Of a stretch of DNA of 64,000 nt, positions 201 to 51,002 are shown piece after piece. The notes beneath the pieces are model-generated. The model did no database searches. It had not been told where the DNA came from and saw only the letters and a list, made by a program, of their open reading frames with translations. This DNA is from Candidatus Parcubacteria bacterium. Its GTDB lineage: Bacteria > Patescibacteriota > Minisyncoccia > UBA6257 > HR35. The number at the start of each line of letters is the position of its first letter. The stretch's first letter is position 1. The translations under genes and the position numbers were made by a program. The stretch spans positions 431,424 through 495,423 of the forward strand of contig BPJI01000001.1 in assembly GCA_026004535.1 (NCBI GenBank). Direction: 5' to 3'.

Positions 201-1664
201 TCAAACTTTATATTTTTTCTTTATTTCTTCTTCTTTTTGTCTTTCGATTGATTCTATTTTTTCTTCGCCAATCAAAGCTAATTCTTTTAATTTCTCATCT
301 GGTAAGTCTTTTAATTCTTTAGCTCTTTCAATTAAATATTCCTTGTTATTTTTAGTTGGATCATCAATAACTTCTTCTAATAAAGCTTTCAAGATCCAAC
401 CAATTTTAGGACCATGAGGAACGCCTAGATTCAACAAATCATAACCATTGATATTTAACATTTTCGGAGTGATTGGCTCTAAATGAACTTTTTCAATTAA
501 ATATCTTAAATATCTAAGTCGATAAGGTTCAGCTTTGGGAACTCCAGAACCAATTCTATCAGCGTGTCTTAACTTAAATAAATCCTCCAAATTTTCTTGG
601 CCAACACGTCTAACTAAACGACGAACAGCAGCTGGAGTTACTTTATCAATTTCTAAATAAAACATATGCTGACTTACAAGGTGAGTAACTTTTTTAATAA
701 TTTCATTTGAATATCTCAATCTTTCTAAAATTCTTTTTGTGATTTTAGCTCCTAAAATTTCATGACCATAAAAAGTACAATTAGGTCCTTCGCCTTGTTT
801 AGTTAAAGGTTTGGCAATATCATGGAACAAAACAGCCAATCTTAAATATAAGGGATAATTTTTTTTAACTGCATAATCCAAGGACTTTAAAGAATGAAGA
901 TAGACATCATATTTATGGTGTTTATTTTGGCCAACACCATAACATCTATCTAATTCTGGCAAAATTTCCTTTAATAAATTGGTTTGTCTTAAAAGTTCAA
1001 TGCCAATAACAGCATTTCGACTCATTATAATTCGATTAAATTCATCTCTAATTCTTTCATGAGCTATGTATTGAATTAGATAAGCAAATTTTTGGATTGC
1101 TTTAAAAGTTTTTGTCTCAATTGTAAAATTTAATTCACAAGCTAATCTAATAGCCCTCATTAATCTTAAAGCATCTTCACGAAATCTTTTTTCAGGATCA
1201 CCAACTGTTCTGATGATTTTATTTTTTAAATCTTTAATCCCATCAAAAAGATCAATAATATCTCCATCAATACTTAGAGCTAAAGCATTAATAGTAAAAT
1301 CTCGGCGCTGAAGATCTGTTTCTAAATCTTTAATAAAAATGACCTCTTCTGGCCGACGTAAATCACGATATTCTTTTTCTTGACGAAAGGTTGTAACTTC
1401 AATTACTCTTAGGGTTTCGTCTTCGGAATTAGTTTTAATACCTACAGTACCGAACCTATTTTCGTAGAAAGCATTAGGAAAAATTTTTAAAATTTCCTCA
1501 GGTAAGGCATCAGTTGTAATATCCCAATCTTTTGGCTTACGATCAAGTAAAAGATCACGAACACAACCACCAACAAGAAAAGCCTGATAGTTATGATCAA
1601 TTAATTTTTGCCAGATTTGTAGAACTTCTGAGGGCAGGGAAGAGATTTGGATTTTTTTTAACAT
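201..1664 (-). CDS. cca: CCA-adding tRNA nucleotidyltransferase with HD domain
   Basis: 487 aa. N-terminal GGCVRDLLL..DWD polymerase-beta nucleotidyltransferase motif, plus an HD phosphohydrolase region. Confidence 0.85.
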   Translation of the reverse strand: MLKKIQISSLPSEVLQIWQKLIDHNYQAFLVGGCVRDLLLDRKPKDWDITTDALPEEILKIFPNAFYENRFGTVGIKTNSEDETLRVIEVTTFRQEKEYRDLRRPEEVIFIKDLETDLQRRDFTINALALSIDGDIIDLFDGIKDLKNKIIRTVGDPEKRFREDALRLMRAIRLACELNFTIETKTFKAIQKFAYLIQYIAHERIRDEFNRIIMSRNAVIGIELLRQTNLLKEILPELDRCYGVGQNKHHKYDVYLHSLKSLDYAVKKNYPLYLRLAVLFHDIAKPLTKQGEGPNCTFYGHEILGAKITKRILERLRYSNEIIKKVTHLVSQHMFYLEIDKVTPAAVRRLVRRVGQENLEDLFKLRHADRIGSGVPKAEPYRLRYLRYLIEKVHLEPITPKMLNINGYDLLNLGVPHGPKIGWILKALLEEVIDDPTKNNKEYLIERAKELKDLPDEKLKELALIGEEKIESIERQKEEEIKKKYKV

Positions 1665-1674
1665 TGTTTTGTTA

Positions 1675-1745
1675 AGCGGGATACGGGAATTGAACCCGTG
1701 TCTCCACCATGGGAAGGTGGCGTTGAGCCACTCAACTAATCCCGC
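1675..1745 (-). tRNA. tRNA-Gly (anticodon CCC)
   Basis: The reverse complement folds as a cloverleaf: acceptor GCGGGAT/ATCCCGC, D stem GTTG/CAAC, anticodon stem CCACC/GGTGG with loop TTCCCAT, and a GTTCAATTC T arm. Confidence 0.8.
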
Positions 1746-1918
1746 TTTAATTAGATTATATCATACATTCTTTTACATTATTAACTTTAAATTATCATAA
1801 TATAAATAATATAATTTATTACACTTGATTTTTAAAAAATTTTAGGATAAAATTATAAAAATTTAAAACCTATTTAATTTTGTAAAAAAAAATTAATTTT
1901 GTAAAAAATAAAAAATGG

Positions 1919-2296
1919 ATGGCAAAGAAGATAATAATAGGTACAAATTTGATATTAGATATTATCAATGTAGACTCTGCTGTTTTGAGTAAGAGAAAAA
2001 ATATTTTAGACTTGCTTAAAAAATTAATTAAGGAAACTAAATCAACTCCTGTCTCTAAACCATTCATCAAAAAAATAAAATCACCTAAATACCCTTATGA
2101 AGGTTATTCAGTTATTCAAATTATTCAAGAAAGTCATATTGCTATTCATACTTGGCCTGAATATAATTATCTAGCTATTGACATTTTTTCCTGTAAGAAA
2201 ATTAATGAGAATAAAATAATCTTTATTTTAAAGAAGATATTTAGCAAAAATACAAGAATTAAAGTAAAAATTTATCAAAGAATAGCCGAGTATTAA
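1919..2296 (+). CDS. speH: S-adenosylmethionine decarboxylase proenzyme (class 1, pyruvoyl-dependent)
   Basis: 125 aa. Carries [11 protein letters not shown]...AIDIFSC, the AdoMetDC self-cleavage (ES) and active-site Cys region. Confidence 0.75.
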
Positions 2297-2625
2297 TTTT
2301 AGTTCGTAAAACAATTATTTTGCGAATTTATAAATGTTCTCTCTTAAAAAAAGCTTATTTAATTGGAATTAATTGAATCTCCATCTTTTTACCTACTCTC
2401 AAGTTCTTTCCCAAATTTTTAATCAATCATTTGATCATTTGATATTGATATTTGCGGTTCTCGTAGTAAAAGTTAAACCACAGCAATTTTAATAAAAATT
2501 TTTAGAGACACCAGCTATGATACCACAGTTCTCGTTGGTTCAGAAATTATAGAATAGAAAAGCAATGTTTTGTTAGGCAAAAATTTTAAATTGGTAGTCA
2601 TAACTAACTTCCGAGTTGGTGATGT

Positions 2626-2835
2626 TTATAAAATTTTAGAAGCCCTTAAAAGTTCAATTATTTGATCAATATCTTTTTCTTCAATAGGCAGCTTAATTTC
2701 GGTTGGTTGATGTTGTTTGAAGTAAATTTCATTTCCCTGCCCTATTTTTTGAGCTAAAAAAAATATTGTTAAACCATTAATCAGAATCACAACTGAAATA
2801 TAAATAATCATTATGGCTAATTTTGCTTTTTTCAT
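2626..2835 (-). CDS. hypothetical small membrane protein
   Basis: 69-aa ORF with one TM helix. Its start overlaps the upstream gene's stop (ATGA). Confidence 0.3.
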   Translation of the reverse strand: MKKAKLAIMIIYISVVILINGLTIFFLAQKIGQGNEIYFKQHQPTEIKLPIEEKDIDQIIELLRASKIL

Positions 2836-3356
2836 TTTGTCTGTAAATTTAATTCAATATTCAAATTATTGTTAATTTTATCAATTTTAAAATTGATTGT
2901 TTGCCAAATTAAACCACTTTCAATCATAAAATTGGAAAATTTTTCCAAATCGCTCTCGGGCAACTGAAAAATAAAAGTTAATTTTTTTTCTTGTTGATTA
3001 AAACTTGTTGTTTGAATTGACCAATTCTCTTTTTGTAATTTTTCATTAACCAAATTTTTAGTTGTCTCAAAATCTCGATCTAATTTTTGATTAGCTTCAA
3101 ATAAAATTGTTTTTAATTCCTTACCAGTTTTTTGTTCAATCAAACTAACTATCTTTTTTATTTTATTTTGACTTTCAATTGTCGCTTGGTTTTGAATCAA
3201 TTTTTCTTTTAAATTATTAATCTCGTTTATTTTTGCCAAAGTTTTTTGGGAATAAAAATTAAGTATAAAAAAATAACCAACAGTTATCAGAAGAAAAATA
3301 AGAGTAAAAACAGCTATCTTTAAATAAATTTTATTTAATGTCTGATTATGGCCCAT
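2832..3356 (-). CDS. hypothetical membrane-anchored coiled-coil protein
   Basis: 174 aa with an N-terminal TM helix and a K/E/Q-rich coiled coil. It resembles PilN/PilO-type assembly proteins only in architecture. Confidence 0.35.
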   Translation of the reverse strand: MGHNQTLNKIYLKIAVFTLIFLLITVGYFFILNFYSQKTLAKINEINNLKEKLIQNQATIESQNKIKKIVSLIEQKTGKELKTILFEANQKLDRDFETTKNLVNEKLQKENWSIQTTSFNQQEKKLTFIFQLPESDLEKFSNFMIESGLIWQTINFKIDKINNNLNIELNLQTK

Positions 3357-3360
3357 TAAT

Positions 3361-3530
3361 TATTCATTACCCGGATATGGAACGGATAAATTAACTGGAT
3401 GTAAACCGGATGATATTATTAATTATTTTTACTCGGATTTACACCGGATAAACTACCCTGATTATAACCGGATATATCTGGTATTCATCCGGGTAATTAA
3501 TCAGGTATTTAATCCGGGTAATCTATTTAA
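3361..3530. repeat. ccggat-word repeat element (direct block, then inverted atccggg block)
   Basis: About a dozen (a)cccggat / aaccggat words at ~11-13 nt spacing, followed by the reverse-complement words catccgggtaa / aatccgggtaa. Confidence 0.8.
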
Positions 3531-5432
3531 TTATAACTCTTTTTCTTTAATTTCAACAAAAATTTCTAATTCCTCTTTAGTAATTATCTCTTCTTTAATT
3601 TTACCTAAATGTTCTAAGGGCGTAGCGAAAATTTCCTTGATAATTGCTCGAGGATTAATTTTGTTTTTCTTATTAAATTCCATTTGATATTTTCTTCTTC
3701 TTTGGGTTTCCTTTATGGCAGCTTCTAATGATTTGGTTATTTTATCAGCATACAAAATTACTTTACCTTCTAAATGACGAGCACTTCTCCCGATTGCTTG
3801 GATTAATGTTGTTGTATTTCTTAGAAATCCTTCGCGGTCAGCATCTAAGATAGCTACTAAGGAAACTTCAGGCAAATCTAATCCTTCTCTTAGAAGATTA
3901 ACTCCGACCAAAACCTCAATTTCGCCTGTTCTTAATTTTTTTATAATCTCTGCTCTTTTTAAGGTTTTAATATCTGAATGTAAATAGTTCGCTTTAATTC
4001 CCTGCTCTAATAAAAATTCAGTTAAATTTTCGGCTGATCTTTTAGTTAAAGTTAAAACCAAAACTCTTTGATTTTTATCAAGTCTTTCTTTTATCTCTTT
4101 TAATAAATCTAAAACTTGATTTTTAGTTGGTCGCACTTCAATTTCTGGATCTAAAATACCTGTTGGCCTTACTAGTTGTTCAACGATCTGCGAAGAAATT
4201 TTTCTTTCAAAAGGTCCAGGAGTTGCTGAAACAAAAATAATCTGGAAATTTTTATTGAAAAATTCATCAAATGTTAAAGGCCGATTATCGATTGCTGAAG
4301 GTAATCTCCAGCCATATTCAACTAAAATTTCTTTTCTTTTTCGATCACCATTAGCCATTGCTCTTAATTGAGGAATGGCTAAGTGCGATTCATCAATAAA
4401 CAAAATTGTTTCTGATGGTAAATAATCTAATAAAGTATATGGTGGTTCACCTGGATTTCGAAAAGATAAATGCCTTGAATAATTTTCAATTCCAGAACAA
4501 TAACCATATTTTTCTAAAAGATGAATATCTAACAAGGTTCTTTGTTTAATTCTTTCAGCTTCAACAATTCTTCCCTGCTCCAAAAATTGCCAATATCTTT
4601 CTTTTAATTCTTGTTTGATATTTAAGATAGCAATGTCTAATTTTTCTTTGGGGGTGACAAAAAATTTAGCTGGAAAGATTTTAATATATTCTAATTCTTC
4701 ATAATCTCCAGTTATTTCTAATTTAAAAACATCCTCTCTTGATTTTTTGATTGTAAATTTTTTAATTGATTTTATGATTTTGTTTTGCCATTTAATTTCT
4801 AACATATAACTTCCGTCAGGGTTAAAAATGTAAATTCCTGAATTTTCTCGGTCATAAATATATGTTCCTGATCTGATTGTATTCAAACTTCCTTTTTCAT
4901 ATTGTAATGTTTTTAAATAATCAATAACATCTTTAAGGGAAATTTTTTGGCCAACATTTAAATTTAAACAAATATTTTTATATTCTTCAGGATCACCAAT
5001 GCCATAAATACAACTAATTGAGGAGACAATAATAAAATCTTTTCTAGTTAAAACACTTTCAATGGCAGCATGACGAAGTTGATCTAAAAGCTCATTAATT
5101 CTTGCATCTTTAGCAATATAAATATCTGTTTCAGGTAAATAAGCTTCCGGCTGGTAATAATCATAATAACTAACAAAATAATGAACTGCATTTTCAGGAA
5201 AGAAATATTTAAATTCTTGATAAAGTTGAGCCGCCAAAACTTTATTAGGTGAAAGAACCAAAGCAGGCCTTTGAGTTTTATAAATAACATTAGCCATAGA
5301 AAATGTTTTTCCACTGCCAGTCACTCCTAAAAGTGTTTGAAATCTATAATTTTTATTCAATCCGGCAACTAACTTTCTAATTGCTTGAGGCTGATCTCCA
5401 GATGGTTTGTAATCCGAAATCAATTTGAACAT
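3531..5432 (-). CDS. uvrB: excinuclease ABC subunit B
   Basis: 633 aa. Walker A GVTGSGKTF, UvrB helicase motifs and a C-terminal UVR-like helix. Confidence 0.9.
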   Translation of the reverse strand: MFKLISDYKPSGDQPQAIRKLVAGLNKNYRFQTLLGVTGSGKTFSMANVIYKTQRPALVLSPNKVLAAQLYQEFKYFFPENAVHYFVSYYDYYQPEAYLPETDIYIAKDARINELLDQLRHAAIESVLTRKDFIIVSSISCIYGIGDPEEYKNICLNLNVGQKISLKDVIDYLKTLQYEKGSLNTIRSGTYIYDRENSGIYIFNPDGSYMLEIKWQNKIIKSIKKFTIKKSREDVFKLEITGDYEELEYIKIFPAKFFVTPKEKLDIAILNIKQELKERYWQFLEQGRIVEAERIKQRTLLDIHLLEKYGYCSGIENYSRHLSFRNPGEPPYTLLDYLPSETILFIDESHLAIPQLRAMANGDRKRKEILVEYGWRLPSAIDNRPLTFDEFFNKNFQIIFVSATPGPFERKISSQIVEQLVRPTGILDPEIEVRPTKNQVLDLLKEIKERLDKNQRVLVLTLTKRSAENLTEFLLEQGIKANYLHSDIKTLKRAEIIKKLRTGEIEVLVGVNLLREGLDLPEVSLVAILDADREGFLRNTTTLIQAIGRSARHLEGKVILYADKITKSLEAAIKETQRRRKYQMEFNKKNKINPRAIIKEIFATPLEHLGKIKEEIITKEELEIFVEIKEKEL

Positions 5433-5439
5433 GATATAA

Positions 5440-5530
5440 TTATATCACTGACATTGAACTAACAGAACTGACACTGAAACTTACAGAATTAATATAATCT
5501 AAGTTCCATAAGTTCTGCGTTTGTATATTC
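5440..5530. repeat. cagaac/gttctg-word repeat element in the uvrB / phosphohexomutase divergent intergenic region
   Basis: The words aacagaactgacactgaaacttacagaatt are followed by inverted ttccataagttctgcg. Confidence 0.6.
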
Positions 5531-5534
5531 CAAA

Positions 5535-6947
5535 ATGCTCTTAACTGGTTATGATTTAAGAGGTATTTTTAAAAAAGAATTGACTTTTGATGTTATTTAT
5601 CAAGCAACTAAACAGTTTTTTAAGAAATTAAAAATTAGAAAAGCCATTTTGGCTGTTGATGCAAATAGAAATAATTTTTTAATTAAAGATTTCTTAGAAA
5701 GAAATTTCAATCTTGAGTTTATTGGCGTTCTACCAACGCCAATTTTTTATTATAAAGTCATTAAAATAAAAATTCCTGGAATTATGATTACTGCTTCTCA
5801 TTTGCCTTTAAAATATTCGGGGTTGAAATTTATTTTAGAAAATGGCGAACCGTGGAAACCTTATATTAGCGCGTTGCCTTCGGGTCATACCCCCGAAGCC
5901 CACAGCCCTCGGAGTGCTATCGTACGCACCTCTGCCGGAATGACCCTCAGGCAAACGCGCCGGATAATTAATTTACAAAAGCACCAGATAATTAAGGAAT
6001 ATTTTAAAACTTTATTTTCTATCATCAAACCGAAAAAGAAAATTTTTGTTTGTTTTGATAAGAAAAATTTTTTTCTTAATGCTTCCCTACCCTATTTTGA
6101 AAAATTAAAAATTTTTCATCAAGATAATTCTCCAATTAAGATTAAATCTGATTTAGACAATGACAGAATTTTTGTTTATCTTAAAAAAAGAAAAATTCAT
6201 AATGATTTAATTTTTTATTATTTAGCTCTTTTGCCTCAATATAAGAAATTGGCTGTGCCAATATTTTTCAGTCAAAAACTAAGACAAGAACTTATTAAAA
6301 AAGGTAAGAAGATTTATTTTATTCCAACTGGACACTATTATTTCAAAAAAGCATTCAAAAAATATAATTTAGACTTAGGTTTTGAACCAAGTGGTCATTT
6401 TTATATGTTTAAAGATTTAAAAACAGAATCGCCCTATTTGGCCTTAGGTTTATTTTTACATTTATTAGCAGAACTTACGGACCTAACACAGACAGAACGG
6501 ACCAAACAGAGAATAGCCTTGGAGGAAATTTTAAAATTAAATAATTCACTTCAACTTTATCGTTTTGATATTAAGAAAATACAATCAGAAGAAAATGTTG
6601 TCTCTTTTTTGAAGAAGAGATATAAGTTAAAATTAAAAAAGTTTGACGGTTATTTATTATTTCCAAAGGAAAAAACAGAACTTACAAAACTAACACAGAA
6701 TTTAAATAAAAATACTATCGCAGAACTTACTGAACTAACACAGAACTTACAGAAAAATACTACCTCAGAAATTGCAGAACTAACACAGAACTCGCAGAAA
6801 AATTCAGTGAGTTCTGCGTCAGTTCAGCATGGTTCTGCGTTCTACCTGTATTTAAGGAAAAGCAAAACAGAAAATAAATTAAGAGTATCTTTTGAAGGCG
6901 ACAAAAAAATTCTCAAAGAAATAAAACAATGGCTCATGAAGATTTAA
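5535..6947 (+). CDS. phosphoglucomutase/phosphomannomutase-family protein carrying in-frame repeat insertions
   Basis: TASHLP (active-site Ser, SHNP-like) and GFEPSGH (GEESGH-like) phosphohexomutase motifs. Interrupted by a GC-rich ~100-nt insert and by ELTxLTQN repeat blocks. Confidence 0.6.
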   Translation: MLLTGYDLRGIFKKELTFDVIYQATKQFFKKLKIRKAILAVDANRNNFLIKDFLERNFNLEFIGVLPTPIFYYKVIKIKIPGIMITASHLPLKYSGLKFILENGEPWKPYISALPSGHTPEAHSPRSAIVRTSAGMTLRQTRRIINLQKHQIIKEYFKTLFSIIKPKKKIFVCFDKKNFFLNASLPYFEKLKIFHQDNSPIKIKSDLDNDRIFVYLKKRKIHNDLIFYYLALLPQYKKLAVPIFFSQKLRQELIKKGKKIYFIPTGHYYFKKAFKKYNLDLGFEPSGHFYMFKDLKTESPYLALGLFLHLLAELTDLTQTERTKQRIALEEILKLNNSLQLYRFDIKKIQSEENVVSFLKKRYKLKLKKFDGYLLFPKEKTELTKLTQNLNKNTIAELTELTQNLQKNTTSEIAELTQNSQKNSVSSASVQHGSAFYLYLRKSKTENKLRVSFEGDKKILKEIKQWLMKI

Positions 6948-21613: not shown

Positions 21614-23689
21614 TTAACGAATTGTTATTCCATATCTACTTTTTAAATTTTCTTCAATTTTCCGCATTTCTAAGTTAACATCTTCATCAGTTAAACTTCG
21701 TTGGGGGTGGAAAAAAATAAACCTGATTGTCATTGATTTTAAATTTGAAACCTCAGAATTTTGAGGAAAATAAACGTCAATTAATTTTATTTCCTGAAGA
21801 TAATTTATTTTTAATCTCTCAATTTCCATCTTTAATTGACTAAATTTAATTTTTTCATCAATAAAGAATGATAGATCTCTGATAATTTGAGGAAAAATTG
21901 GCCAAGGATGAAAAACTTTTTTCATCACAGATCTTTTTTTTAATGTATTTGTATCTAATTCAATTACACCAACATTTAAATCAATGTCCAGTTCGCTTAA
22001 AATTTTTTTCTTAATTAAACCCAAAATGCCGACATTATCAATTTTTATTCCTGCGGTTAAAAATTCGTTTTTAATTTCTTCTAATTTCAAATTCAAGCAT
22101 AATTCTGAAGCAATAAAATTTAAAACACCCTTTAATTCCTTTAAAATTTCTTCGGGTGTTAATTTACTGGCATAAACGATTCCCAAATGATATTTCTCAA
22201 CCACGGATTCACGCGGATTTAAAACGGATTTGCGCGGATTATATTGAGCCACGGATTCACGCGGATTTACACTGATCTCTTTATAAGCTACTTTACTTAT
22301 TTCAAAAATTTTGATTTCCTTAAAATTAAATTGATTAAGATAAACAGATTTTAATAAATTAGGAATTAAACTCGATTGAAAATATTTATAATTTTCACTA
22401 ATTGGATTTAAAACCTCGACCACGGATTTTCGCGGATTTAAAATATCAACCACGGATTCACGTGGATTTTCTATACGCATAACATCATTTAATCTATATA
22501 ATCCTTGCAGTTCTTTCTCTCCATAAAAACTATAATTATGACCTTCATCATAACCAGCTTTGGTTAATATTTTTCTTAAAAAATTATTAAAAACAATATC
22601 TTCTTCAATGAAAATTTCTCTTAAGGGTGATTCATAAATTGGTTTAATTTTATTTAAATCATATATCCTTATAATTTCTTCAACAATATCTGTTTCCGTT
22701 TGTAAATCTAATCTCTCCAAAGGTACAATTAATTGATCATTTTTAATTTTGATGCCTAATTTTTTAAAAATTTTCAAAATTTCTTTTTTATTAATTTCTA
22801 AACCGGTGATTTTTTTAACTTTGTCAAAATTAAATTTTATTTTAGTCTCCCTTAATTTTTTCTCTCCAAAAATTTTTCTTAAAACATCTCCGCCTAAATT
22901 TCTATTAATTAAATAAGAAACCCTATTTAAGGCTTGCAAAGCTCTTATTGGCGCTACTTTTCTTTCAAAACGAAAACTTGCTTCTGTTTTCAAATTTAAC
23001 TTTCTTGAAGTTTGATAAATTTTAGTCGGGTCAAAAACTGCCGCTTCAATAAAAATATTTTTTGTTTTTAAATCAATTTCTGCTGTTTTGCTTCCTTTAA
23101 TTCCAGCTAAACCTAAAATTTTTTCTTTATCAGCAATAACAATTTCATCACCTTGAAGCTCATATTCTTTCCCCTCTAAAGAAATAAATTTTTCTCCTTT
23201 TTTAGCTAAACGAACATAGATATTGCCTTTAATTTTGTCCAAATCAAAAATATGAAGTGGTGCCCCATATTCAATCATCACAAAATTAGATAAATCAACT
23301 AAAAAGTTAATTGAATTAAAACCGTAAAATTCAACAAATTCTTTTAACCAACCCGGAGAAGGTTTATTTTCAACATTTAAAATTATTCTGCCAAAATAAT
23401 AAGGCGCTAATTTTGAATTAACAATCACTTTGAAGTTTAAACTTTTTGCTTTAGATTGTAGATTGTTAATTTTTAATTCTTTTGAGATTAAATTTTTTAT
23501 TATTGCTACTTCTTTAGCTAAACCAATTAAACTCGCTGCATCAGGATAACGATTAGGCAAAATATCAACCTCTAAAATTCCATCATTATAAACAGTCTCG
23601 AAACTTTTCATTGTCAATTCACTAGCAATTTTTTCCCAGTCTAATTTTTTATTTAAATATTTTTCTAAATCTTTTATTCTAAATTTCAT
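21614..23689 (-). CDS. pheT: phenylalanine--tRNA ligase beta subunit, carrying in-frame cacggat repeat insertions
   Basis: B3/B4, B5 and C-terminal FDX-ACB domains. NPRESVV..NPRKSVV peptide repeats are encoded by cggatt word arrays at 22196-22270 and 22425-22478. Confidence 0.8.
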   Translation of the reverse strand: MKFRIKDLEKYLNKKLDWEKIASELTMKSFETVYNDGILEVDILPNRYPDAASLIGLAKEVAIIKNLISKELKINNLQSKAKSLNFKVIVNSKLAPYYFGRIILNVENKPSPGWLKEFVEFYGFNSINFLVDLSNFVMIEYGAPLHIFDLDKIKGNIYVRLAKKGEKFISLEGKEYELQGDEIVIADKEKILGLAGIKGSKTAEIDLKTKNIFIEAAVFDPTKIYQTSRKLNLKTEASFRFERKVAPIRALQALNRVSYLINRNLGGDVLRKIFGEKKLRETKIKFNFDKVKKITGLEINKKEILKIFKKLGIKIKNDQLIVPLERLDLQTETDIVEEIIRIYDLNKIKPIYESPLREIFIEEDIVFNNFLRKILTKAGYDEGHNYSFYGEKELQGLYRLNDVMRIENPRESVVDILNPRKSVVEVLNPISENYKYFQSSLIPNLLKSVYLNQFNFKEIKIFEISKVAYKEISVNPRESVAQYNPRKSVLNPRESVVEKYHLGIVYASKLTPEEILKELKGVLNFIASELCLNLKLEEIKNEFLTAGIKIDNVGILGLIKKKILSELDIDLNVGVIELDTNTLKKRSVMKKVFHPWPIFPQIIRDLSFFIDEKIKFSQLKMEIERLKINYLQEIKLIDVYFPQNSEVSNLKSMTIRFIFFHPQRSLTDEDVNLEMRKIEENLKSRYGITIR

Positions 23690-23700
23690 TGTTATGTATT

Positions 23701-23800
23701 ACCCGGATAACCAACCGGATTATTTTACCCGGATGATTACCGGATAAATCCGGTTTATATCCAGGTAGTATTATCCGGTTAATATCCGGGTAAAAATATT
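23701..23800. repeat. ccggat-word repeat element
   Basis: acccggataaccaaccggatt..., then atccaggta / atccggtta / atccgggtaa. Confidence 0.75.
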
Positions 23801-23823
23801 TTCTGCTGCTGTCTAAGGTATTA

Positions 23824-24831
23824 TTAAAATTGTCTTATAAATCTCAAATCTGAAGAATGTAAAATTCTAATGTCATCAATACCATGCTCTAACATTATTA
23901 ACCTATCAACACCAAAACCAAAGGCATAGCCTTGATATTTCTTATAATCAATCCCAGCTGACTTTAAGACAAAATCATGAACCATGCCAGCACCAGCGAC
24001 TTCAATAAAACCAGTTTTTTTACAAATTATACATCCTCTTTGTTTACAAAAAATACAACCAATGTCAATTTCTAATCCAGGTTCAACAAAAGGAAAATAT
24101 CCTGGTCTAAATCGAACAGGTAAATTTTCTTTAAAAAATCTTTCAAAAAATTTCTCAACCACATATTTTAAATGACCTAAATTGCTATTTTCGCTAATTG
24201 AAATTCCGTCAAGTTGATAAAATTCAAAATCATGGGTTTTGTCAATTGCTTCGTAACGAAAAACTTTACCAGCAATTATTGCTCTTATCGGAACTCCATA
24301 TTTCTTTAAAACAGGAACTTGAAAACAAGAAGTATGAGTTCTAAATAATAATTCTCTATTTTTTACCCATAAAGTGTCCCAAAGATCCCTGGCTGGATGA
24401 TGCGGAGGAATGTTTAAGTAATCAAAGTTTTCTTTTTCATCAACGATTTGAGCATAATCAACGACACTAAAACCTAACTGAATAAAAATATCAAAAATTT
24501 TATTAATTGTTTGGGAAATCAAATGTTCTTTACCAACTTTAATTTCTCTACCCGGATGTTCAAAATCAAATTTAATATTAGTCTCTAGTAAAAATTCTTT
24601 TTTTTGCCGATAAAGATTTTCAATTTTTCTTTTAAGTTCGTTATAAAGACTGCCAATTTTTCTTTTTTCTTCAATTTCTAATTTTTTTATTAATGATGGA
24701 AAATTAGCTAAATAACTTTTTCGACCTAAATATTTTATTAACAAATTTTCCAATTCACTTAAACTCTTAACACTAGTAAATTCTTTTTCTGCTTCTTGCC
24801 AAATTTTATTTAAAGTTTCTTCAAGAGACAT
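23824..24831 (-). CDS. pheS: phenylalanine--tRNA ligase alpha subunit
   Basis: Class II aaRS motifs, including FRPGYFPFVEPGLEID. Confidence 0.9.
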   Translation of the reverse strand: MSLEETLNKIWQEAEKEFTSVKSLSELENLLIKYLGRKSYLANFPSLIKKLEIEEKRKIGSLYNELKRKIENLYRQKKEFLLETNIKFDFEHPGREIKVGKEHLISQTINKIFDIFIQLGFSVVDYAQIVDEKENFDYLNIPPHHPARDLWDTLWVKNRELLFRTHTSCFQVPVLKKYGVPIRAIIAGKVFRYEAIDKTHDFEFYQLDGISISENSNLGHLKYVVEKFFERFFKENLPVRFRPGYFPFVEPGLEIDIGCIFCKQRGCIICKKTGFIEVAGAGMVHDFVLKSAGIDYKKYQGYAFGFGVDRLIMLEHGIDDIRILHSSDLRFIRQF

Positions 24832-32164: not shown

Positions 32165-33142
32165 TTAAAAAGTTTCAAAATAAGAAAATCTATTTTTTGC
32201 TTTTCGCCAAATAATTTCTATTTTTTCAACCTTAGCTAATATTGGTCCTCGTTTTATTTTTTCTAAAAATTCTTGTAAATTCTTTTCTTTACCTTGAGCT
32301 AAAACCTCAATACTGCCATCTGTTAAATTTTTAGCATAACCAAAAATTCCTAAATTTTGTGCCCAATTACGGCAAAATAATCTAAAACCAACTCTCTGTA
32401 CTCTGCCATAAACTTTGACGTAAAATTCTAAATAATCTTTCTCTATATCTTCAAAACTTAATGCTTCTTCCAAGGTAAATTCATTTATTTTAGTTCTAAC
32501 TAAAGATTTTAAATAAGCACCACAACCTAATTTTTGACCAATATCATGAGCTAAACTTCTAATATAAGTTCCTGATGAAACTTCAACTTCAATTTTAAGG
32601 ATCTTTTCTTTTAAATCTAAAATTTTAATATTATAAATTTTTACTTTTCTTGGTTTTAAATCAACCTTTAAGCCTTTCCTTGCTAATTTATATGCTCTTT
32701 TGCCTTTTATTTTTATAGCTGAATAAGGTGGAGGAATTTGTTCTATCTCGCCAATAAAACCTGCTAATATTTTTTCTATCTCTGATATATTTAGGTTCGT
32801 ATCAGTTCGCGTTAAGCCATGAACCAGAGCAGAGCTCGGTTCATGGTCCTGAACCCTTCGTGGTTCAGGATTCGCATCGGTTCGCACTATGTTTCCGGTT
32901 ATATCATAAGTATCAGAGATAGCACCTAATTCAATTTCAGCAATATAAGTTTTTCTACTTTCTTTTAAAAATTTTGTTAGTTCTTTTGTATAGTCATCAA
33001 TTCCCAAAATTAAAAGTCCTTCAGCAAAAGGATCTAATGTTCCTCCATGCCCAACTTTTTTCTTAGTTAATTTTTTAAAATAATTAACAATCTGAACAGA
33101 AGTATAATTTTGGGGTTTATTAAACAGAACTAATCCTTCCAT
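32165..33142 (-). CDS. truB: tRNA pseudouridine(55) synthase TruB fused to a C-terminal acylphosphatase-like domain; contains an in-frame ggttc-word insert
   Basis: N-terminal TruB (HGGTLDPFAEGLLILGI). C-terminal VYGRVQRVGFR ... GYAKNLTDGSIEVLAQG acylphosphatase signatures. GC-rich insert at 32795-32905. Confidence 0.7.
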   Translation of the reverse strand: MEGLVLFNKPQNYTSVQIVNYFKKLTKKKVGHGGTLDPFAEGLLILGIDDYTKELTKFLKESRKTYIAEIELGAISDTYDITGNIVRTDANPEPRRVQDHEPSSALVHGLTRTDTNLNISEIEKILAGFIGEIEQIPPPYSAIKIKGKRAYKLARKGLKVDLKPRKVKIYNIKILDLKEKILKIEVEVSSGTYIRSLAHDIGQKLGCGAYLKSLVRTKINEFTLEEALSFEDIEKDYLEFYVKVYGRVQRVGFRLFCRNWAQNLGIFGYAKNLTDGSIEVLAQGKEKNLQEFLEKIKRGPILAKVEKIEIIWRKAKNRFSYFETF

Positions 33143-34720: not shown

Positions 34721-37501
34721 TTAATATTTCATTTGCAACCTTATTTTTCTATTAATTTTTGCTTTTTCTAAAATAACATTCTTTGTTTTTTCAAATCGCT
34801 TAAAGTTTTCTTGGTTCAAAAATTCTTCAAGTTCTTTTTCCTCAACAAAAGCACCGATATAAGGAATTGTTGATTTTAATATTTTAATTAAAACAAAATC
34901 ACTTTTACCTGGCCCACCACCTTTTTCTTCTAATTTTTGCCAATTTTCTTTTAACCAATTAAAAGTGAATTTTGCTGCATTTGAATTTAAAGAAACTGAA
35001 TTGAAAAAGAAAATAGTCTGATTAAATCTAACTTGTGAAGAAAGAATAAATTCAAAAATAGAACTTAACTTTTCTAAATTTTGTAAATTACCAAAAGCAA
35101 TTAAACATTTATTTTGTTCTTCAATCAAATTAGTCTGATGATAATAATTCAAAAGTTTTTCTAAATAGTTATCATTAGCAATTAAAGCATTATTAAAGAT
35201 TGCTTGTTTAATATCAGGATGAAGTTTTTCTTTGTCTTTTAAAAATTCTTCAAATTTTTCTTGGCTGAAATCTAAAATCTCTTTATTCTTCAAAATTCCC
35301 AAAGAAAATAGAGTTTTTTGCCTTAAAACTGTTTCATAAGGTTGTTCACCTTCCCTCGGCTCTTTTCCTAAAATATCCAAAACTTTTAAAGAAAATTTTT
35401 CTAATAAAGCGGAAAGGTCAGAAACGGACGCGGAACGAACGGAATAAGCGGAACTGGTTTTTCCGTCTGTTCCATTTTTTCCGTGTCCGTTTCCGTCTGT
35501 TCTGCTTTGATCTGTATCAATTCTGCGCAGTTCCGCGTTTAGTCTGCGTTGGTCTACGTCTATCCTGCGTTGGTCTGCGTTTAGTAAATAATAATAAAAA
35601 TTTAAATAAGAAATAATTTCACTAAAAACAAAGGGTTTAGAATTATTGATAAAATATTTTTCTAAAATTTCTAAAAAGTTTTCAAAATTTTTCTCACCCT
35701 TTCTAACTAACATATCATAATCATGAACTAAATGAACCTGATCAATTTCATTTAATTTTTCTAAATTCTCTAAATTTCTTTTTAGAATTTCTTCATCATA
35801 ATCACTAACAAAAAAACTTGAATAGTTTTTATTAAGAATAAAAGTTGAAAAATTAGATTCAGGAATTGGGGCGATTTCTTCTTTTTCTTTTAATATTTTT
35901 CTTTCTTCTTTATTATCAATTTCAATCACAAAAGGAATTTTCCAATAATCTTCTCTGTCTTCTAAAAATAAGAATCTCCTTTGTCTTAAACAGTATCTGC
36001 CTTGCTCTTTTTTAAAACTTACCAAAGGATAGCCAACTTTTTCAATATAATCTTTCATAATCTCAACCACTGGCACACTCGAAACTTCTTCTAAGCATTG
36101 CCACAAATCTTCTGCTTTAGCATTTTGATAAGTAAATTTTTTAATATACAGCCTCAATCCTTCTCTAAATTTTTCTTCACCTAAATAATTCTCAATCATC
36201 CTTAAAACACTGCCACCTTTTTCATAAGATATCTCATCAAAAATTTCAACTGACTCATTTGGATCTTTAACCTCAACTTTAATCGGGTGAGAAGCAATCA
36301 AACCATCAGCATTCAAAGCACTAAAAACTTCATCCAAAACATATTTTTCTAAAATTCTCCAATTAGGATAAAAATTATTAACAGCTTTATAAGCTAAATA
36401 AGTGGCAAAGCTTTCATTTAACCATAAATCGTCCCACCACTTCATTGTTACTAAATTACCAAACCACATATGAACTAATTCATGAGCAATAACTTCAGCA
36501 ATTCTTTCTTGGGTAGATTTTGGTGTTATGCCTTCGAAAACTAAAAGTAAATTCTCGCGAAAAGTAATTGCTCCCCAATTTTCCATTGCTCCAGCAGCAA
36601 AATCAGGAACAGCGATTAGATCTAATTTTTTTAAGGGATAAGGGGAATCAAAATATTCTTCTAAATAATTTAAAAATTTTTTAGCATTTTCTAAAGCAAA
36701 TCTTACTCCTTCTAATTTTTCCTTTGGCGTAACTGCCACTCGAATAATAACTTCTTTATATTTATCTTCAACAAAATACCAATCACCAATTCCAATATAC
36801 AAAAGATAAGTTGACATCTTGGGAGTTGTTTCAAAAATCACTTTTTTCTTTTCATTAACAATTTCTTCTTTAATTGGCAAAGTATTGGAAATTGCTTTTA
36901 ATTCTTTAGGAAAAATTAAAGTTAAATCAAACGTTGCTTTTTTATCTGGGTCATCAAAACAAGGAAAAGCTTTGCGTGCTTCAATTGGTTCAAATTGAGT
37001 TGTGATTAAACATTTTTCTTGTTCTTTGTCTTTATATTTACTTAAATAAATTCCTCCTAAAACCTCTTTTAATTCTCCTTCAAAATCAATAAAAATAGTA
37101 TTATCTTTTTCAGAAAAATTATTTTTAATCAAAATTCCATCTTTTTGAACTTCAAAATCTACATCTTGGTCATTCACTTTTAGCTGATTAATTTTTAAAT
37201 CAACAGCATCAATTTTTAGAAAATTACCCCGATGATCACCTGATAGATTACCCGGATAATTGTCTGGCATATTACCCGGATAATCACTGGATAAATCCGG
37301 TTCATATTCGGGTAGTATTATCCGGTTAATATCCGGGTGGTTCCATCCGGTTTGAATCCGGGTAGCTGTATCTGGTTTTAATCCGGGTAAACTAATTCTT
37401 ATCTCTTCTCTGCCTCGATAAATATTCTTCTCTAAATCAAAGTCTAATTCAATTTTATAATTTCTAACTTCCATTATTTTTCCTTGATAAATTTTCAACA
37501 A
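34721..37501 (-). CDS. pepN: aminopeptidase N (M1 family) with in-frame repeat insertions
   Basis: GAMENWG exopeptidase motif and HELVHMWFGNLVT...WLNESFA zinc motif. The acggaa/ctgcg element at 35395-35580 and the ccggat element at 37228-37392 sit inside the ORF. Confidence 0.85.
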   Translation of the reverse strand: MLKIYQGKIMEVRNYKIELDFDLEKNIYRGREEIRISLPGLKPDTATRIQTGWNHPDINRIILPEYEPDLSSDYPGNMPDNYPGNLSGDHRGNFLKIDAVDLKINQLKVNDQDVDFEVQKDGILIKNNFSEKDNTIFIDFEGELKEVLGGIYLSKYKDKEQEKCLITTQFEPIEARKAFPCFDDPDKKATFDLTLIFPKELKAISNTLPIKEEIVNEKKKVIFETTPKMSTYLLYIGIGDWYFVEDKYKEVIIRVAVTPKEKLEGVRFALENAKKFLNYLEEYFDSPYPLKKLDLIAVPDFAAGAMENWGAITFRENLLLVFEGITPKSTQERIAEVIAHELVHMWFGNLVTMKWWDDLWLNESFATYLAYKAVNNFYPNWRILEKYVLDEVFSALNADGLIASHPIKVEVKDPNESVEIFDEISYEKGGSVLRMIENYLGEEKFREGLRLYIKKFTYQNAKAEDLWQCLEEVSSVPVVEIMKDYIEKVGYPLVSFKKEQGRYCLRQRRFLFLEDREDYWKIPFVIEIDNKEERKILKEKEEIAPIPESNFSTFILNKNYSSFFVSDYDEEILKRNLENLEKLNEIDQVHLVHDYDMLVRKGEKNFENFLEILEKYFINNSKPFVFSEIISYLNFYYYLLNADQRRIDVDQRRLNAELRRIDTDQSRTDGNGHGKNGTDGKTSSAYSVRSASVSDLSALLEKFSLKVLDILGKEPREGEQPYETVLRQKTLFSLGILKNKEILDFSQEKFEEFLKDKEKLHPDIKQAIFNNALIANDNYLEKLLNYYHQTNLIEEQNKCLIAFGNLQNLEKLSSIFEFILSSQVRFNQTIFFFNSVSLNSNAAKFTFNWLKENWQKLEEKGGGPGKSDFVLIKILKSTIPYIGAFVEEKELEEFLNQENFKRFEKTKNVILEKAKINRKIRLQMKY

Positions 37502-39840: not shown

Positions 39841-39990
39841 ATTTTTACCCAGATTATAACCAGATAATACTACCCGGATATTAACCGGATATAACTACTC
39901 GGATTCAAACCGGATACAAATACCCGGATATAAACCGGTATTCATCCGGGTAATCTATCCGGTATTAATCCGGGCATATTAATAAAATCT
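39841..39990. repeat. ccggat-word repeat element
   Basis: taacccagat / aaccagat / acccggat words, then catccgggtaa / atccggtatt / aatccgggca words. Confidence 0.8.
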
Positions 39991-39993
39991 AAT

Positions 39994-40383
39994 ATGAATA
40001 GTTTAGTTATTAAAACAAAAAAGAAAAAAGAAATAATTGATATTACTGAAAAAATAAATGAGATTTTATCAAAACAAGAAAAAGATTCTGGACTAGTTTT
40101 TCTTTTTGCTTTGCATACAACCTGCGCTTTAACAACTGCCGACCTAGATCCTGGAGCTGAAAAAGATTATATTAATGCCTTTGAGAAAATAAGTCCTCAA
40201 GCAAACTTTATTCATCCTCATAATCCCGAACATTTTCCTGATCATTTTTTATCTTCAATTATTGGCACTTCCCTTCTTCTTCCTTTTGAAAACAAAAACT
40301 TAATTTTAGGCACATGGCAAAGAGTAATTCTAATTGAATTTGATGGACCGAGAGAAAGGAAAATCATAGTCAGGTTAATATAA
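39994..40383 (+). CDS. yjbQ: YjbQ/UPF0047 family protein (secondary thiamine-phosphate synthase-like)
   Basis: LHTTCALTTADLDPGAEKD and LGTWQRVILIEFDGPRERKIIVR, matching UPF0047. Confidence 0.7.
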   Translation: MNSLVIKTKKKKEIIDITEKINEILSKQEKDSGLVFLFALHTTCALTTADLDPGAEKDYINAFEKISPQANFIHPHNPEHFPDHFLSSIIGTSLLLPFENKNLILGTWQRVILIEFDGPRERKIIVRLI

Positions 40384-40401: not shown

Positions 40402-41832
40402 CTATCTCAGATTTTGTTTATATCTTTTTTCTAATTCTCTAAATCTATACCAAAGAAAAGCTAATAGGAAAATAATCAAAAACAAAAGAAATAACCAAAA
40501 AATATTTACTCCCCCAAAAGCTCCGATAAAACCTAACAGACTTGTATTTATACCTTTAATTTGCAAATCAGAGGAGAATGAATAATTAGCTCCAGGCGTT
40601 GAGACTTTAAAATCAATATTATAATTTTTAGTCTTTACTACACCCGAACAAGGAACATCTACTATCCAATCAACAAGACGACTTGAATTTGGTTCTAAGA
40701 CAAAATCTCTTTCGCTAGGTTTAAACCAATTACCAACTTCTCCATTTGCTTTAATGGTTATTTTTCTATTTACAGAAGTATTATTTATTAAGGTTAATTG
40801 AATTGTATTTTGAGCACAAACATTCACAGAATAGGTAGGTTCCACAAGTAAATCAATTAATTTATTATTATTTGTTTTTTGAATAGGTGTCGGCACCTCA
40901 ATACTACGGGTTACTGTTCGAGTTACTGTCCGAGTCAAATAAGTAGTTCGACCAACTGAAATTAATATTTCCTTAGACGACTGGCTGCCTTGATTATCGG
41001 TAACAATTAACTTAACCCTATAAGCACCGGAGGCTAAAGCACGATTAAAAGTTTTAAGATTAGAAACCGTTTCGTTGTTAATTATCCATTCATAAGAAAT
41101 AATAAAACCATCTGGATCATAAGATTGAGAAGCATCAAAAGTGACAATGGTGCCTGGCCGAATATCCTCGGGAGTAAAAGCAATAACAGCTATGGGTAAT
41201 TGATTTATTATTGACGAATTTTGCCCAGAAGAAATATTAACCGAACAAGAGGCTGATTTAGTTTCATTACCAGAGGTAACAGTAATATTAGCTGTATAAG
41301 TACCAGCCGAAGAGAAAGACCTAGAGCAAGTTGAGGAAGAACCACTGCAAGCACCCGACCAAGAATAAGAATAAGATCCATTGCCACCGCTTACATTAGC
41401 TGTAAAAACAACTGTTTGATTTACATTAGCTGGGTTAGGCGAAGCAGAACAAGAAACTTGAAGATTTGAAAAGACACAATTCGTTCTAAAAGAATAAATA
41501 TTACCATAATTTGTACCTCCGCTATTTCTGGAAGCAGCTCGATAAAAGTAAGTAGTACAAGGTTGAAGACCTGTAATAGTTTGGCAAAATCCTTGAGGAG
41601 GATTAGGAATAAAAAGAAATTGATCAGGCGTTCTGTTAGTCAAAGAAAAGCTCGATGTTCCCCATTCAAACCAAGCAGTTATATTAGGATCACCACCATT
41701 GTCTTGAATTTCACCAACCAAAGTAGCCCAAGTATTACCATAAGTTGTTTGAGCTGGACAAGTTTGAGCAAAAACATTGCTTCCCTCTAAGATTATAAAT
41801 ACTATCAAGATTATTAAAAATCTTCTTAACAT
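40402..41832 (-). CDS. cell-surface protein: signal peptide, FN3-like domain, two PKD domains, C-terminal TM anchor
   Basis: WFEWGTS...GLQPCTTYFYRAASRN FN3-like signature. Two PKD-like blocks (VVFTANVSGGNGSYSYSWSG... and IVTFDASQSYDPDGFIISYEW). C-terminal hydrophobic helix plus a basic tail. Confidence 0.7.
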   Translation of the reverse strand: MLRRFLIILIVFIILEGSNVFAQTCPAQTTYGNTWATLVGEIQDNGGDPNITAWFEWGTSSFSLTNRTPDQFLFIPNPPQGFCQTITGLQPCTTYFYRAASRNSGGTNYGNIYSFRTNCVFSNLQVSCSASPNPANVNQTVVFTANVSGGNGSYSYSWSGACSGSSSTCSRSFSSAGTYTANITVTSGNETKSASCSVNISSGQNSSIINQLPIAVIAFTPEDIRPGTIVTFDASQSYDPDGFIISYEWIINNETVSNLKTFNRALASGAYRVKLIVTDNQGSQSSKEILISVGRTTYLTRTVTRTVTRSIEVPTPIQKTNNNKLIDLLVEPTYSVNVCAQNTIQLTLINNTSVNRKITIKANGEVGNWFKPSERDFVLEPNSSRLVDWIVDVPCSGVVKTKNYNIDFKVSTPGANYSFSSDLQIKGINTSLLGFIGAFGGVNIFWLFLLFLIIFLLAFLWYRFRELEKRYKQNLR

Positions 41833-42307: not shown

Positions 42308-42991
42308 TTATAAAGTTATAACAGGTGGTAAGGTGATAACAGCTGGTGGTCTTACCGGTTGATTAACGGTTACCGAACAAGAGGCTGATTTAGTTTCATT
42401 ACCAGAGGTAACAGTAATATTAGCTGTATAAGTACCAGCCGAAGAGAAAGACCTAGAGCAAGTTGAGGAAGAACCACTGCAAGCACCCGACCAAGAATAA
42501 GAATAAGATCCATTGCCACCGCTTACATTAGCTGTAAAAATAACTGTTTGATTTACATTAGCTGGGTTAGGCGAAGCAGAACAAGAAACTTGTAAAGGAG
42601 CACATTGAGTAGTAAAGGAGTAAATAGATCCTCTTGAAGTTCCAGCAGAATTTCTAGCAACGGCTCGATAAAAGTAAGTAGTACAAGGTTGAAGACCTGT
42701 AATAGTTTGGCAAAATCCTTGAGGAGGATTAGGAATAAAAAGAAATTGATCAGGCGTTCTGTTAGTCAAAGAAAAGCTCGATGTTCCCCATTCAAACCAA
42801 GCAGTTATATTAGGATCACCACCATTGTCTTGAATTTCACCAACCAAAGTAGCCCAAGTATTACCATAAGTTGTTTGAGCTGGACAAACCCTTTGAACAC
42901 TAGTTTGAGCAATAGCTTGTTTTTTTGAAAAAATATATTGACCTAAAAAAACTAATCCAATGATTAGAAACAAGAAAGATGTTTTTTTCAT
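42308..42991 (-). CDS. truncated tandem paralog of the surface protein (signal, FN3-like, one PKD) ending in a VITLPPVITL tail
   Basis: About 540 nt nearly identical to 41230-41800 except for a ~75-nt divergent patch. Confidence 0.65.
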   Translation of the reverse strand: MKKTSFLFLIIGLVFLGQYIFSKKQAIAQTSVQRVCPAQTTYGNTWATLVGEIQDNGGDPNITAWFEWGTSSFSLTNRTPDQFLFIPNPPQGFCQTITGLQPCTTYFYRAVARNSAGTSRGSIYSFTTQCAPLQVSCSASPNPANVNQTVIFTANVSGGNGSYSYSWSGACSGSSSTCSRSFSSAGTYTANITVTSGNETKSASCSVTVNQPVRPPAVITLPPVITL

Positions 42992-49614: not shown

Positions 49615-51002
49615 TCAATAAATGTTTTAACTTGATCTCGAAAAGAAATCATTTTGCTTAAATAAACTCCTTTCCAAATAAACCAACTAATTAAACCAGA
49701 AAATTCAATTCCTTTAATTTCACCTAAGGCATAAAACCTACCAACTGAAATCAAATCGCCAGCATGTTTATAAATAAATTTCTGCAATGGTTTATTTTCA
49801 ATTAAATTTTTAATATTTAAAGCAACTAATTTTGCTTGTCTAACTGCAACTTGAGCTAATTGTGGTAATGGTTTTTGATCTTGAATAAAACAACAAACAT
49901 CACCAATTGCAAAAACATTATCATATACAGAACTACTCAGAACTGATGCAGGACTGACTGAATTATCTTTGGTTGCAGAACTATACTGAACTGACACTGA
50001 ACTAACAGAATTATTCTGTGAGTTCTGTATTGGTTCTGTATGTTCTGCATTATTCTGCAAATTCTGTGTAAGTTCAGCTCTTTCTGCGTCTATTTTCTTT
50101 TTCACCTGCAAATATTCATTTAAAACTAGTCTTCCTTTATTATCTTTTTCAACGTTACCAATAATTTCTGGTAAATTTGGTTCAACTCCTGCTGTCCAAA
50201 TAACTGTTTTTGTTTCAATAACATTACCGTCATCAAGTTTAATAAAATCTTCACCAACCTCAATTACTCCTTTTTCTAGTCTAACATCAACTTTTAATTT
50301 TTTTAACCTTTCAAGTGCTTTTTGTCTTAATTTTGGAGAAAATTGAGGAATTAATTCTTTGCCTTTTTCGATTAGAATTATTTTAACTTGTGAAATTAAA
50401 TCTGATGAATATAATTTACTAAATGTTTTATAAAACAAATCACTCATTTCACCAGCCAATTCAACTCCTGTTGCTCCACCTCCAACAATGACAAAAGTGA
50501 GATATTTATTTACCTTTTCTGGATATAAACTTCCTATTTCAAACATATGAACAAATCTATTTTTCAATCTTATAGCGTCATCAATTGTTTTTAAGGAAAA
50601 ACTATATTCTTTAGCCCCAGGAATATTGTAATAATTTGTTTTCGAACCTAAGGCAATAACTAGATAATCATAATTAACATTATAATCTTCTCTTTCTTTA
50701 TTTATGTAAACAATTTTGTTCTCTAAATCAATTTTTTCAACTTCTCCATGAACAAAATCAAAATCACAACATCTAATAATTTCTCTTATGGGTTCTAGGG
50801 CATTATCAATCGAAACTCCGCCAGTAGCAACTTCATGAAGTAAAGGCGTAAAAATAAAATAATTCTTTTTATTCACCAATACTAATTTTACTTTCTTATT
50901 ATGAAAAAGTTTATGTAAATGTTTTAAAGCATAAACACCACCAAATCCTCCACCTAAGATTACTATCTTCATTAAATAATCGGAAATAACGGAAACAAAC
51001 AC
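49569..51002 (-). CDS. ndh: type II NADH dehydrogenase / pyridine nucleotide-disulfide oxidoreductase with an in-frame cagaac/gttctg repeat insertion
   Basis: [12 protein letters not shown] motif and a second Rossmann motif [11 protein letters not shown]. The insert at 49925-50100 encodes [34 protein letters not shown]... Confidence 0.75.

Follow-up and report, generated by a model that had tools for sequence, protein, structure and literature searches.

A 92-nt, GC-rich palindromic unit (positions 5869–5960) lies in frame in a gene for a phosphomannomutase/phosphoglucomutase (PMM/PGM)-family enzyme in the 64,000-nt stretch of Candidatus Parcubacteria contig BPJI01000001.1 that we analyzed in full (the window, 64 kb). 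Our preferred reading of this GC unit, to which we give a probability of about one half, is a singleton, translated “coding palindrome”: it would have formed or expanded on site, in a dispensable linker of the enzyme that is prone to palindromes, and would have no catalytic role. The unit is best read as the GC-rich extreme of a lineage-wide habit of in-frame hairpins. Most related lineages have long hairpin DNA, unrelated in sequence, at this linker, which makes it a hot spot; nothing that we found identifies the GC unit as a ribozyme or as a repeated mobile element.

The unit contains 65.2% GC, compared with 28.5% in the window and 26–27% in the flanking parts of the gene. It is the GC-richest 92-nt segment of the 64 kb (mean 28.5%, standard deviation 6.6%), exceeding both tRNA genes. 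The contrast described in the original prediction, which was made from the DNA letters and placed a ∼65% GC segment in a ∼28% GC context at 5858–5962 (61.0% GC; the 88-mer that it quoted is 5876–5963), is thus real. Translation of the segment within the mutase gene, also predicted, holds: the unit lies within codons 5868–5963 (32 codons, residues S112–R143), in frame and stop-free in open reading frame (ORF) 5535–6947, and yields a peptide that contains KPYISALPSGHTPEAHSPRSAIVRTSAGMTLRQTRRIIN and includes SAIVRTSAGMTLR. Both the +0 and the antisense −0 frames are open across it. As frame and ORF are preserved, the ribosome is expected to read through the unit; in-frame ATT codons flank the segment at 5865 and 5967, and because the gap between them is stop-free and a multiple of three, translational bypass is nowhere required. 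The segment does not follow directly on the TASHLP motif (residues 86–91), as had been proposed, but starts 20 residues downstream, at residue 112. Its GC content at third codon positions is 0.66, versus 0.16 in 9,934 reference codons of the window, and it uses CGG, CGC, GCG, CTC, and ACG, codons that each make up 2–4% of their synonymous families. It encodes no Lys, Asn, Phe, Tyr, or Asp, which are abundant in the proteomes of AT-rich genomes. These observations support the view that the segment is driven by nucleotide composition and structure and not by the protein.

The ORF product is a diverged PMM/PGM-family enzyme of 470 residues, identical to GIW67576.1 ([quoted passage not shown]; MAG, metagenome-assembled genome), which is encoded on a 556,583-bp contig. 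It matches Pfam families PGM_PMM_I, III, and IV as well as solved PMM/PGM enzymes by sequence, its AlphaFold model resembles solved PGMs (Foldseek E-value 7e-18, template modeling score about 0.65), and it contains, besides TASHLP, a DLDNDR metal loop and an EPSGH sugar loop. The predicted local distance difference test score (pLDDT) is above 90 over most of the enzyme and falls below 50 at residues 115–140. In the model, the 26–32 residues encoded by the segment thus form a disordered loop, and the mutase fold that bears it is intact. Residues 380–432, a second insert of the mutase, likewise have a pLDDT below 50; the underlying DNA comprises three 45-nt tandem units (15 residues each) followed by inverted arms (6676–6829) and has an orthologous, diverged counterpart in the closest relative. 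A terminator-like hairpin (ATTGGCGTT...AACGCCAAT, then a T run) also lies inside the mutase coding region, at 5721–5743, where it overlies the conserved IGVLPTPIFYY motif.

As predicted, the GC unit is hairpin-forming, and it folds far beyond shuffled sequence on both strands. As RNA, the plus strand reaches −43.1 kcal/mol (z-score −4.9) and the minus strand −52.7 kcal/mol (z −4.8), and none of 200 dinucleotide shuffles folds as well; as DNA, the z-scores are −4.0 and −4.3 for the two strands. The “clean” stem-loop GCCTTCGGG/CCCGAAGCC that had been singled out does exist, in that 8 of its 9 positions pair by eye (the DNA prediction is 7 bp and −6.4 kcal/mol), but it competes with long-range pairing and is not the dominant structure. 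That structure is a long-range closing helix formed by GCGCGTTGCC (5869–5878) with GGCAAACGCGC (5950–5960), extended by GGGTCAT (5882–5888) with ATGACCC (5940–5946) and enclosing a 51-nt center with small hairpins. The arms form 17 pairs with one bulged A and a 3 × 3 internal loop; taken as terminal inverted repeats, 5869–5888 and 5940–5960 contain one bulge and agree at 19 of 21 positions. Temperature does not set the GC unit apart: at 70 °C the predicted folding energy is still negative for all hairpins that we tested, whether GC-rich or not.

Homologs of the mutase form one family of roughly 380–400 residues, in which the linker that holds the unit, from W[KR]P to YF, measures 27–30 residues in basal members and 32–61, unalignable, residues in the close clade. 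Excision of codons 5868–5963 would leave a linker of 14 residues, whereas all homologs have at least 27, and the unit is therefore not the pure insertion that had been suggested. The closest relative (protein P0002 on contig L001) shares 67% protein identity in the mutase and stems from the same sequencing run. Both the source genome (contigs L023 and L024) and L001 derive from run DRR290133, which we take to be a long-read hot-spring metagenome, so that two lineages coexist in one sample. L001 carries 79 nt at the linker site, with 30% GC and no fold (z +1.3). Its GAATCATCTTTAGCCAAACGCGCC is identical to the 3′ arm of the window, GAATGACCCTCAGGCAAACGCGCC, at 19 of 24 nt (p < 0.002 versus shuffles), and this is the sole comparison that scores above shuffles. 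Because the 3′ arm is orthologous to the L001 linker, the unit is not a clean foreign insertion, and the foreign origin that had been proposed for it is not supported. As judged from the alignment, the 3′ arm is ancestral, native linker sequence and the 5′ arm its inverted copy. The linker also contains a direct duplication with 24-nt spacing (Table 1). The copy outside the stem (5976–5995) differs from the stem copy at three sites, each a change from G or C to A, and L001 has one copy of the stretch, in the GC form. This pattern fits retention of the paired copy and decay of the unpaired one, although three sites are not proof.

We took the orthologous gene from seven related contigs with conserved synteny. 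In six of them (L002, L018, L019, L020, L021, and L022) the linker DNA forms a strong hairpin (z −5.2 to −8.6) with 34–50% GC, and the sequences differ, falling into about four independent types (Table 1). The L020 and L021 linkers have common outer arms and different centers (a CCGGAT-word hairpin versus a GC-rich mini-palindrome), which in this one compared pair indicates turnover at the hairpin apex. The GC unit has the same layout, with an older arm and a unique center. L002 and L018 carry hairpin inserts of 57–60% GC elsewhere in the mutase gene, and three relatives have the mini-palindrome CCTGCCTGCCGGCAGGCAGG in their genomes, each at a different place. Instances of CCTGCC(T)TGCCGG(C/T)A(A)GGCAGG lie at L019 13317–13340, L021 2200–2220, and L018 1887–1907; one is a perfect intergenic palindrome, two are in frame at separate sites of the mutase gene, and the window contains none. 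Alignments of the GC unit with the GC-rich inserts of relatives (L002/L018 site 4, L021 center, L019 mini-palindrome) were no better than shuffles, and we rejected a relationship with them.

A GC-corrected folding scan returned 17 outlier segments in the 64 kb, which are long imperfect hairpins built of forward words, a loop, and inverted words. Their word families include CCGGAT, CGGAA, and CAGAACT, and many of them lie in gaps between ORFs. In CCGGAT-type hairpins, ACCCGGAT words alternate with ACCGGAT words, and after a loop come ATCCGGGT/ATCCGGT words; copies are found both between genes and in frame within genes, and the L020 PGM linker is filled with these words. CAGAACT-type words turn up at three places associated with the PGM gene: the intergenic region upstream of it, the middle of the gene, and its C-terminal part. 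Among core enzymes, in-frame arrays are found in enolase, NDH-2, and the M1 aminopeptidase PepN, where they encode low-complexity peptides such as LPGLQPDKLPGFKPDTDNLPGYKPD, and the GC-rich insert in TruB adds about 27 residues that have no counterpart in the Thermotoga maritima TruB structure (1r3e). The TruB ORF is also fused to a C-terminal acylphosphatase domain. All in-frame hairpins are stop-free, the AT-rich arrays over 130–215 nt, which is strong evidence for their translation. In 12 of 15 intragenic hairpins from the window and the relatives, the antisense strand folds better than the mRNA strand, with a gap of up to 22 kcal/mol (10.7 for the GC unit) and more G·U pairs antisense; intergenic hairpins are symmetric. 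The weaker sense-strand folding argues against selection for mRNA structure, and the asymmetry fits DNA-level palindromes that erode under an A-rich coding bias. Elsewhere in the window, two near-identical stretches of ∼100 nt lie 1.1 kb apart in neighboring minus-strand ORFs (41280–41380 and 42410–42510), which suggests tandem paralogues or a recent duplication.

Table 1. Features of the mutase gene, its linker, and other hairpins (window coordinates; linker hairpin types are those of related contigs)
Feature	Position	Strand	Remarks
Host gene, PMM/PGM-family enzyme	5535–6947	+	ORF, Pfam, structure, Foldseek
Hypervariable linker between WKP and YF motifs	5862–5999	+	46 residues in host protein
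GC-rich palindromic unit	5869–5960	not assigned	92 nt, 65.2% GC; composition, folding, frame
5′ arm	5869–5888		GCGCGTTGCC, TTC internal loop, GGGTCAT; inverted copy of 3′ arm
Center	5889–5939		51 nt, 66.7% GC; two or three small hairpins including GTGC...GCAC
3′ arm	5940–5960		ATGACCC, TCA internal loop, GGCAAACGCGC; orthologous to L001 GAATCATCTTTAGCCAAACGCGCC
Direct duplication, 24-nt spacing	5952–5971, 5976–5995	+	CAAACGCGCCGGATAATTAA, CAAAAGCACCAGATAATTAA
Second in-frame hairpin insert of mutase	6660–6860	+	CAGAACT-type words; residues 380–432 modeled disordered
Linker hairpin type, L002 and L018			ACCCGAAT/ATTCGGGT words
Linker hairpin type, L020 and L021			GACGCGGAC/GTCTGCGT words
Two other linker hairpin types			one in L019, one in L022
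CCGGAT-type family, dispersed	3391–3545, 12451–12620, 23671–23840, 37231–37400, 39871–40010, 51961–52160		
CGGAA/TTCCG and CAGAACT/AGTTCTG families	18241–18380, 35386–35525, 50971–51095; also 5440–5500, 6470–6510, 6660–6860, 49936–50075		
In-frame TruB insert, GC-rich (about 57%) hairpin	32790–32906	−	gene 32165–33142
In-frame hairpin array, enolase	51961–52160		alignments to solved enolases break around insert
In-frame hairpin array, NDH-2	49936–50075		
In-frame hairpin arrays, PepN (aminopeptidase N), two	35386–35600, 37231–37400		

Among the alternatives, the one that survives best, and that we nevertheless regard as unlikely, is that the GC unit is one copy of a mobile, GC-rich element resembling a miniature inverted-repeat transposable element (MITE), an analogue of Rickettsia palindromic elements (RPEs) or GC clusters with its other copies in the rest of the genome. 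Terminal inverted repeats, a composition and a codon usage that do not fit the genome, and two open frames, as expected if an element can persist within genes whichever way it is oriented, all speak for it, and the clade does have dispersed hairpin families, with CCGGAT-word hairpins at no fewer than six window sites and the mini-palindrome at three loci in relatives. Our copy searches covered the 64-kb window of the 556-kb source genome and 75 kb of relatives' DNA. No second copy was detected in the window with a 25-mer at up to three mismatches, or in its remainder with blastn-short or nhmmer, and a covariance model built from the unit recovered, in the 139 kb of window and relatives, only the unit and the reverse strand of the unit. 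When 1.84 billion representative proteins were searched by phmmer with both open-frame peptides, the host protein (E-value 4e-13), a positive control of the search, was the only true match; two further weak matches are spurious. The family of mini-elements envisaged in the original prediction thus finds no second member, and neither other copies nor a conserved structure of the unit came to light in the window and the relatives searched. Nor does the locus look like an insertion site: the 3′ arm is orthologous to native L001 sequence, deletion leaves the linker too short, and we see no convincing flanking direct repeats beyond AT-rich TTA/TAA that could be a target-site duplication. The ends of the unit are GCGCG/CGCGC and share no short terminal repeat of the AG/TAG type. 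A degenerate pattern of the arms had 15 single matches in genome contigs, all in GC-rich unrelated taxa and attributable to chance, and attC-like and repetitive extragenic palindrome (GTAG/CGTC-tagged) readings were rejected on inspection, the end motifs being absent. A word-indexed protein search with a concatenated six-frame peptide gave no match and also missed the host protein, so it is uninformative.

We consider it more doubtful that a DNA-level process of this lineage, so far undescribed, builds or inserts hairpins at hairpin apices, in frame, in essential enzyme genes (PGM, enolase, TruB, NDH-2, and PepN), with the GC unit being actively maintained and not debris. If so, arm-to-arm correction or selection for a thermostable DNA or RNA hairpin would keep its GC against strong AT mutation pressure, and the linker hairpins, in about five independent sequence types (four from relatives and that of the host), would represent structure conserved without sequence.

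A functional structured RNA, either a cis-acting mRNA element (in pausing, stability, or processing) or a minus-strand antisense small RNA or ribozyme, is an improbable explanation. The GC content and the per-nucleotide stability of the unit equal those of the genome's tRNA genes, the fold is multi-branched with a z-score near −4.9, the minus strand folds 9.6–10.7 kcal/mol better than the plus strand and has tandem G·A in a UGA/GAA internal loop, and L001 shares the rare codons ACG CGC. Yet cmscan with Rfam 15 over 5700–6100 reported no family on either strand of the unit at E ≤ 10 except a 19-nt chance match (E-value 9.8), at gathering thresholds the whole window returned only two tRNAs, ARAGORN identified no tRNA or tmRNA at the unit, and no promoter-like or terminator-like signal is attached to it. 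The small structured RNA or ribozyme of the original prediction is thus not borne out. Relatives have no homologous structure at the same site, L001 being unfolded there, the weakness of the sense strand is common to other intragenic hairpins, as A-rich coding bias would give, and there is a single sequence with no covariation evidence. A hammerhead-like CUGA...GAA on the minus strand was discarded, since its core fails to match a hammerhead and Rfam gives no support.

Quite improbable, in our judgment, is that the central ∼50–70 nt are filler from a GC-richer genome, captured during break repair at a fragile palindrome, with only the 3′ arm being native. Palindromes are known break sites and bacteria of the Candidate Phyla Radiation (CPR) are thought to depend on imported DNA; the 66.7% GC center resembles nothing in the window, and turnover in relatives is concentrated at hairpin centers. 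Random filler, however, would not account for the precision with which the 5′ arm repeats the native 3′ arm in inverted form, and no donor was found: the center (5889–5939) has no similarity to accessible sequence, its central 24-mer has no match in metagenome contigs (a weak negative, as a control 21-mer from the JGI contigs L002/L018 was missed too), the arm pattern has none in viral contigs, and blastn of the whole 111-nt segment against phages and plasmids returned nothing. An assembly or sequencing artifact such as a chimeric join or adapter, for which a single locus with a sharp compositional break in a metagenome-assembled genome might speak, deserves almost no credence, as in an independent Logan assembly of run DRR290133 contig L024 encodes the identical 470-residue protein and contig L023 is 100% identical to window positions 637–4493, the reading frame is kept, and a relative has an ortholog of the 3′ arm.

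Growth in place thus remains our preferred account. Fold-back or template-switch copying, or else nested insertion at a hairpin apex, would have created or enlarged the palindrome on site, without the transposition of a ready-made foreign element, and the palindrome probably plays no role in catalysis. Its extreme GC, in a genome with 16% GC at third positions, may reflect recent origin, arm-to-arm correction, or selection for stem stability. By analogy, it behaves like a selfish or neutral palindrome tolerated in a permissive protein loop, as do RPEs and yeast mitochondrial GC clusters.

Several points weigh against this account. The copy search reached only 64 kb of the 556-kb genome, which leaves room for a multi-copy family, and both scans of sequence collections are weak, as the genome-contig collection does not include the source genome and a positive control failed in the metagenome contigs. 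Given that the 3′ arm is older than the split from L001 (67% protein identity), a neutral 65% GC should have decayed under AT-biased mutation, and its persistence points to some constraint or maintenance. Host and L001 have both retained the rare codons ACG CGC, although L001 has no pairing partner for them, and with a single sequence covariation offers no evidence. Internal word repetition in the unit is not above that of dinucleotide shuffles (p 0.10–0.62), and its 7-mers show no enrichment in the remainder of the window and provide no shared words, on which grounds we rejected the unit as another word array at the sequence level. With neither periodicity nor shared words, its grouping with the word arrays is by position and architecture only. 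The distinction from these arrays that had been drawn therefore stands for sequence and fails for position and architecture, since the same linker holds word-array hairpins in relatives.

Taken as a single locus, the unit is a curiosity, the GC-richest 92 nt of the window being simply translated inside an enzyme gene. The wider pattern is one of housekeeping enzymes with in-frame hairpin DNA at hypervariable sites, the hairpins being lineage-specific and their products disordered loops. If general, this pattern would bear on the tolerance of palindromes in ultra-small genomes and on the origin of disordered protein segments from nucleotide-level processes, and it would affect annotation, as inserts inflate and disguise conserved enzymes. 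It also cautions that GC islands of AT-rich genomes are not always RNA genes. Full-text literature searches of partial coverage returned no description of coding hairpins in CPR/Patescibacteria, which is not proof of novelty.

The GC unit resembles RPEs and yeast GC clusters, an analogy that does not demonstrate membership of either. RPEs are repeats of the MITE type that have inserted, in frame, into protein-coding genes (PMC10969869). Similar to these, the unit is palindromic, of a size near their 100–150 bp, and in frame inside a housekeeping enzyme gene of a small, AT-rich, reduced genome, where its translation adds a peptide to the enzyme at a site that tolerates it structurally. The RPE-like nature put forward in the original prediction is thus supported by the inverted-repeat arms and the in-frame translation, whereas RPE families have tens of copies and a conserved peptide, and we found neither a second copy nor a peptide relative of the unit. 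In addition, RPEs are not known to be compositional outliers, and one arm of the GC unit corresponds to native sequence.

Yeast mitochondrial GC clusters, which include optional in-frame clusters in var1, and the bypassed “byps” of Magnusiomyces (PMC8811140) offer a second parallel. GC clusters are short GC-rich palindromes in very AT-rich genomes that may sit in frame and lengthen a protein, and they are associated with local sequence turnover and recombination. They differ in being multi-copy and mostly intergenic, with terminal AG/TAG repeats read as target duplications, of which the GC unit shows none, and byps are skipped by the ribosome, whereas the frame of the GC unit is open. The coding palindromes of Nematomorpha mitochondria (PMC6649704) are likewise inverted repeats in protein genes with both arms translated, and represent a genome-wide habit and not one family of identical copies. 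Those repeats are perfect, up to 284 bp long, and found in animal mitochondria; the GC unit is imperfect, 92 nt long with 20-nt arms, bacterial, and a GC outlier. Borg tandem repeats (PMC9879509) are fast-evolving in-frame nucleotide repeats that add disordered protein segments; they are direct and tandem and belong to archaeal extrachromosomal elements, whereas the GC unit is inverted and lies on a bacterial chromosome. Within the clade itself, the word arrays (CCGGAT, CGGAA, and CAGAACT in the window, ACCCGAAT and GACGCGGAC in relatives) differ from the GC unit, which lacks periodic words and shared 7-mers, is a singleton and not dispersed, and has 65% GC compared with 34–50% in the linker hairpins of relatives. 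They have in common with it the linker site that they occupy in relatives, the outer arms with a variable center, the in-frame position, and the disordered peptide that is encoded.

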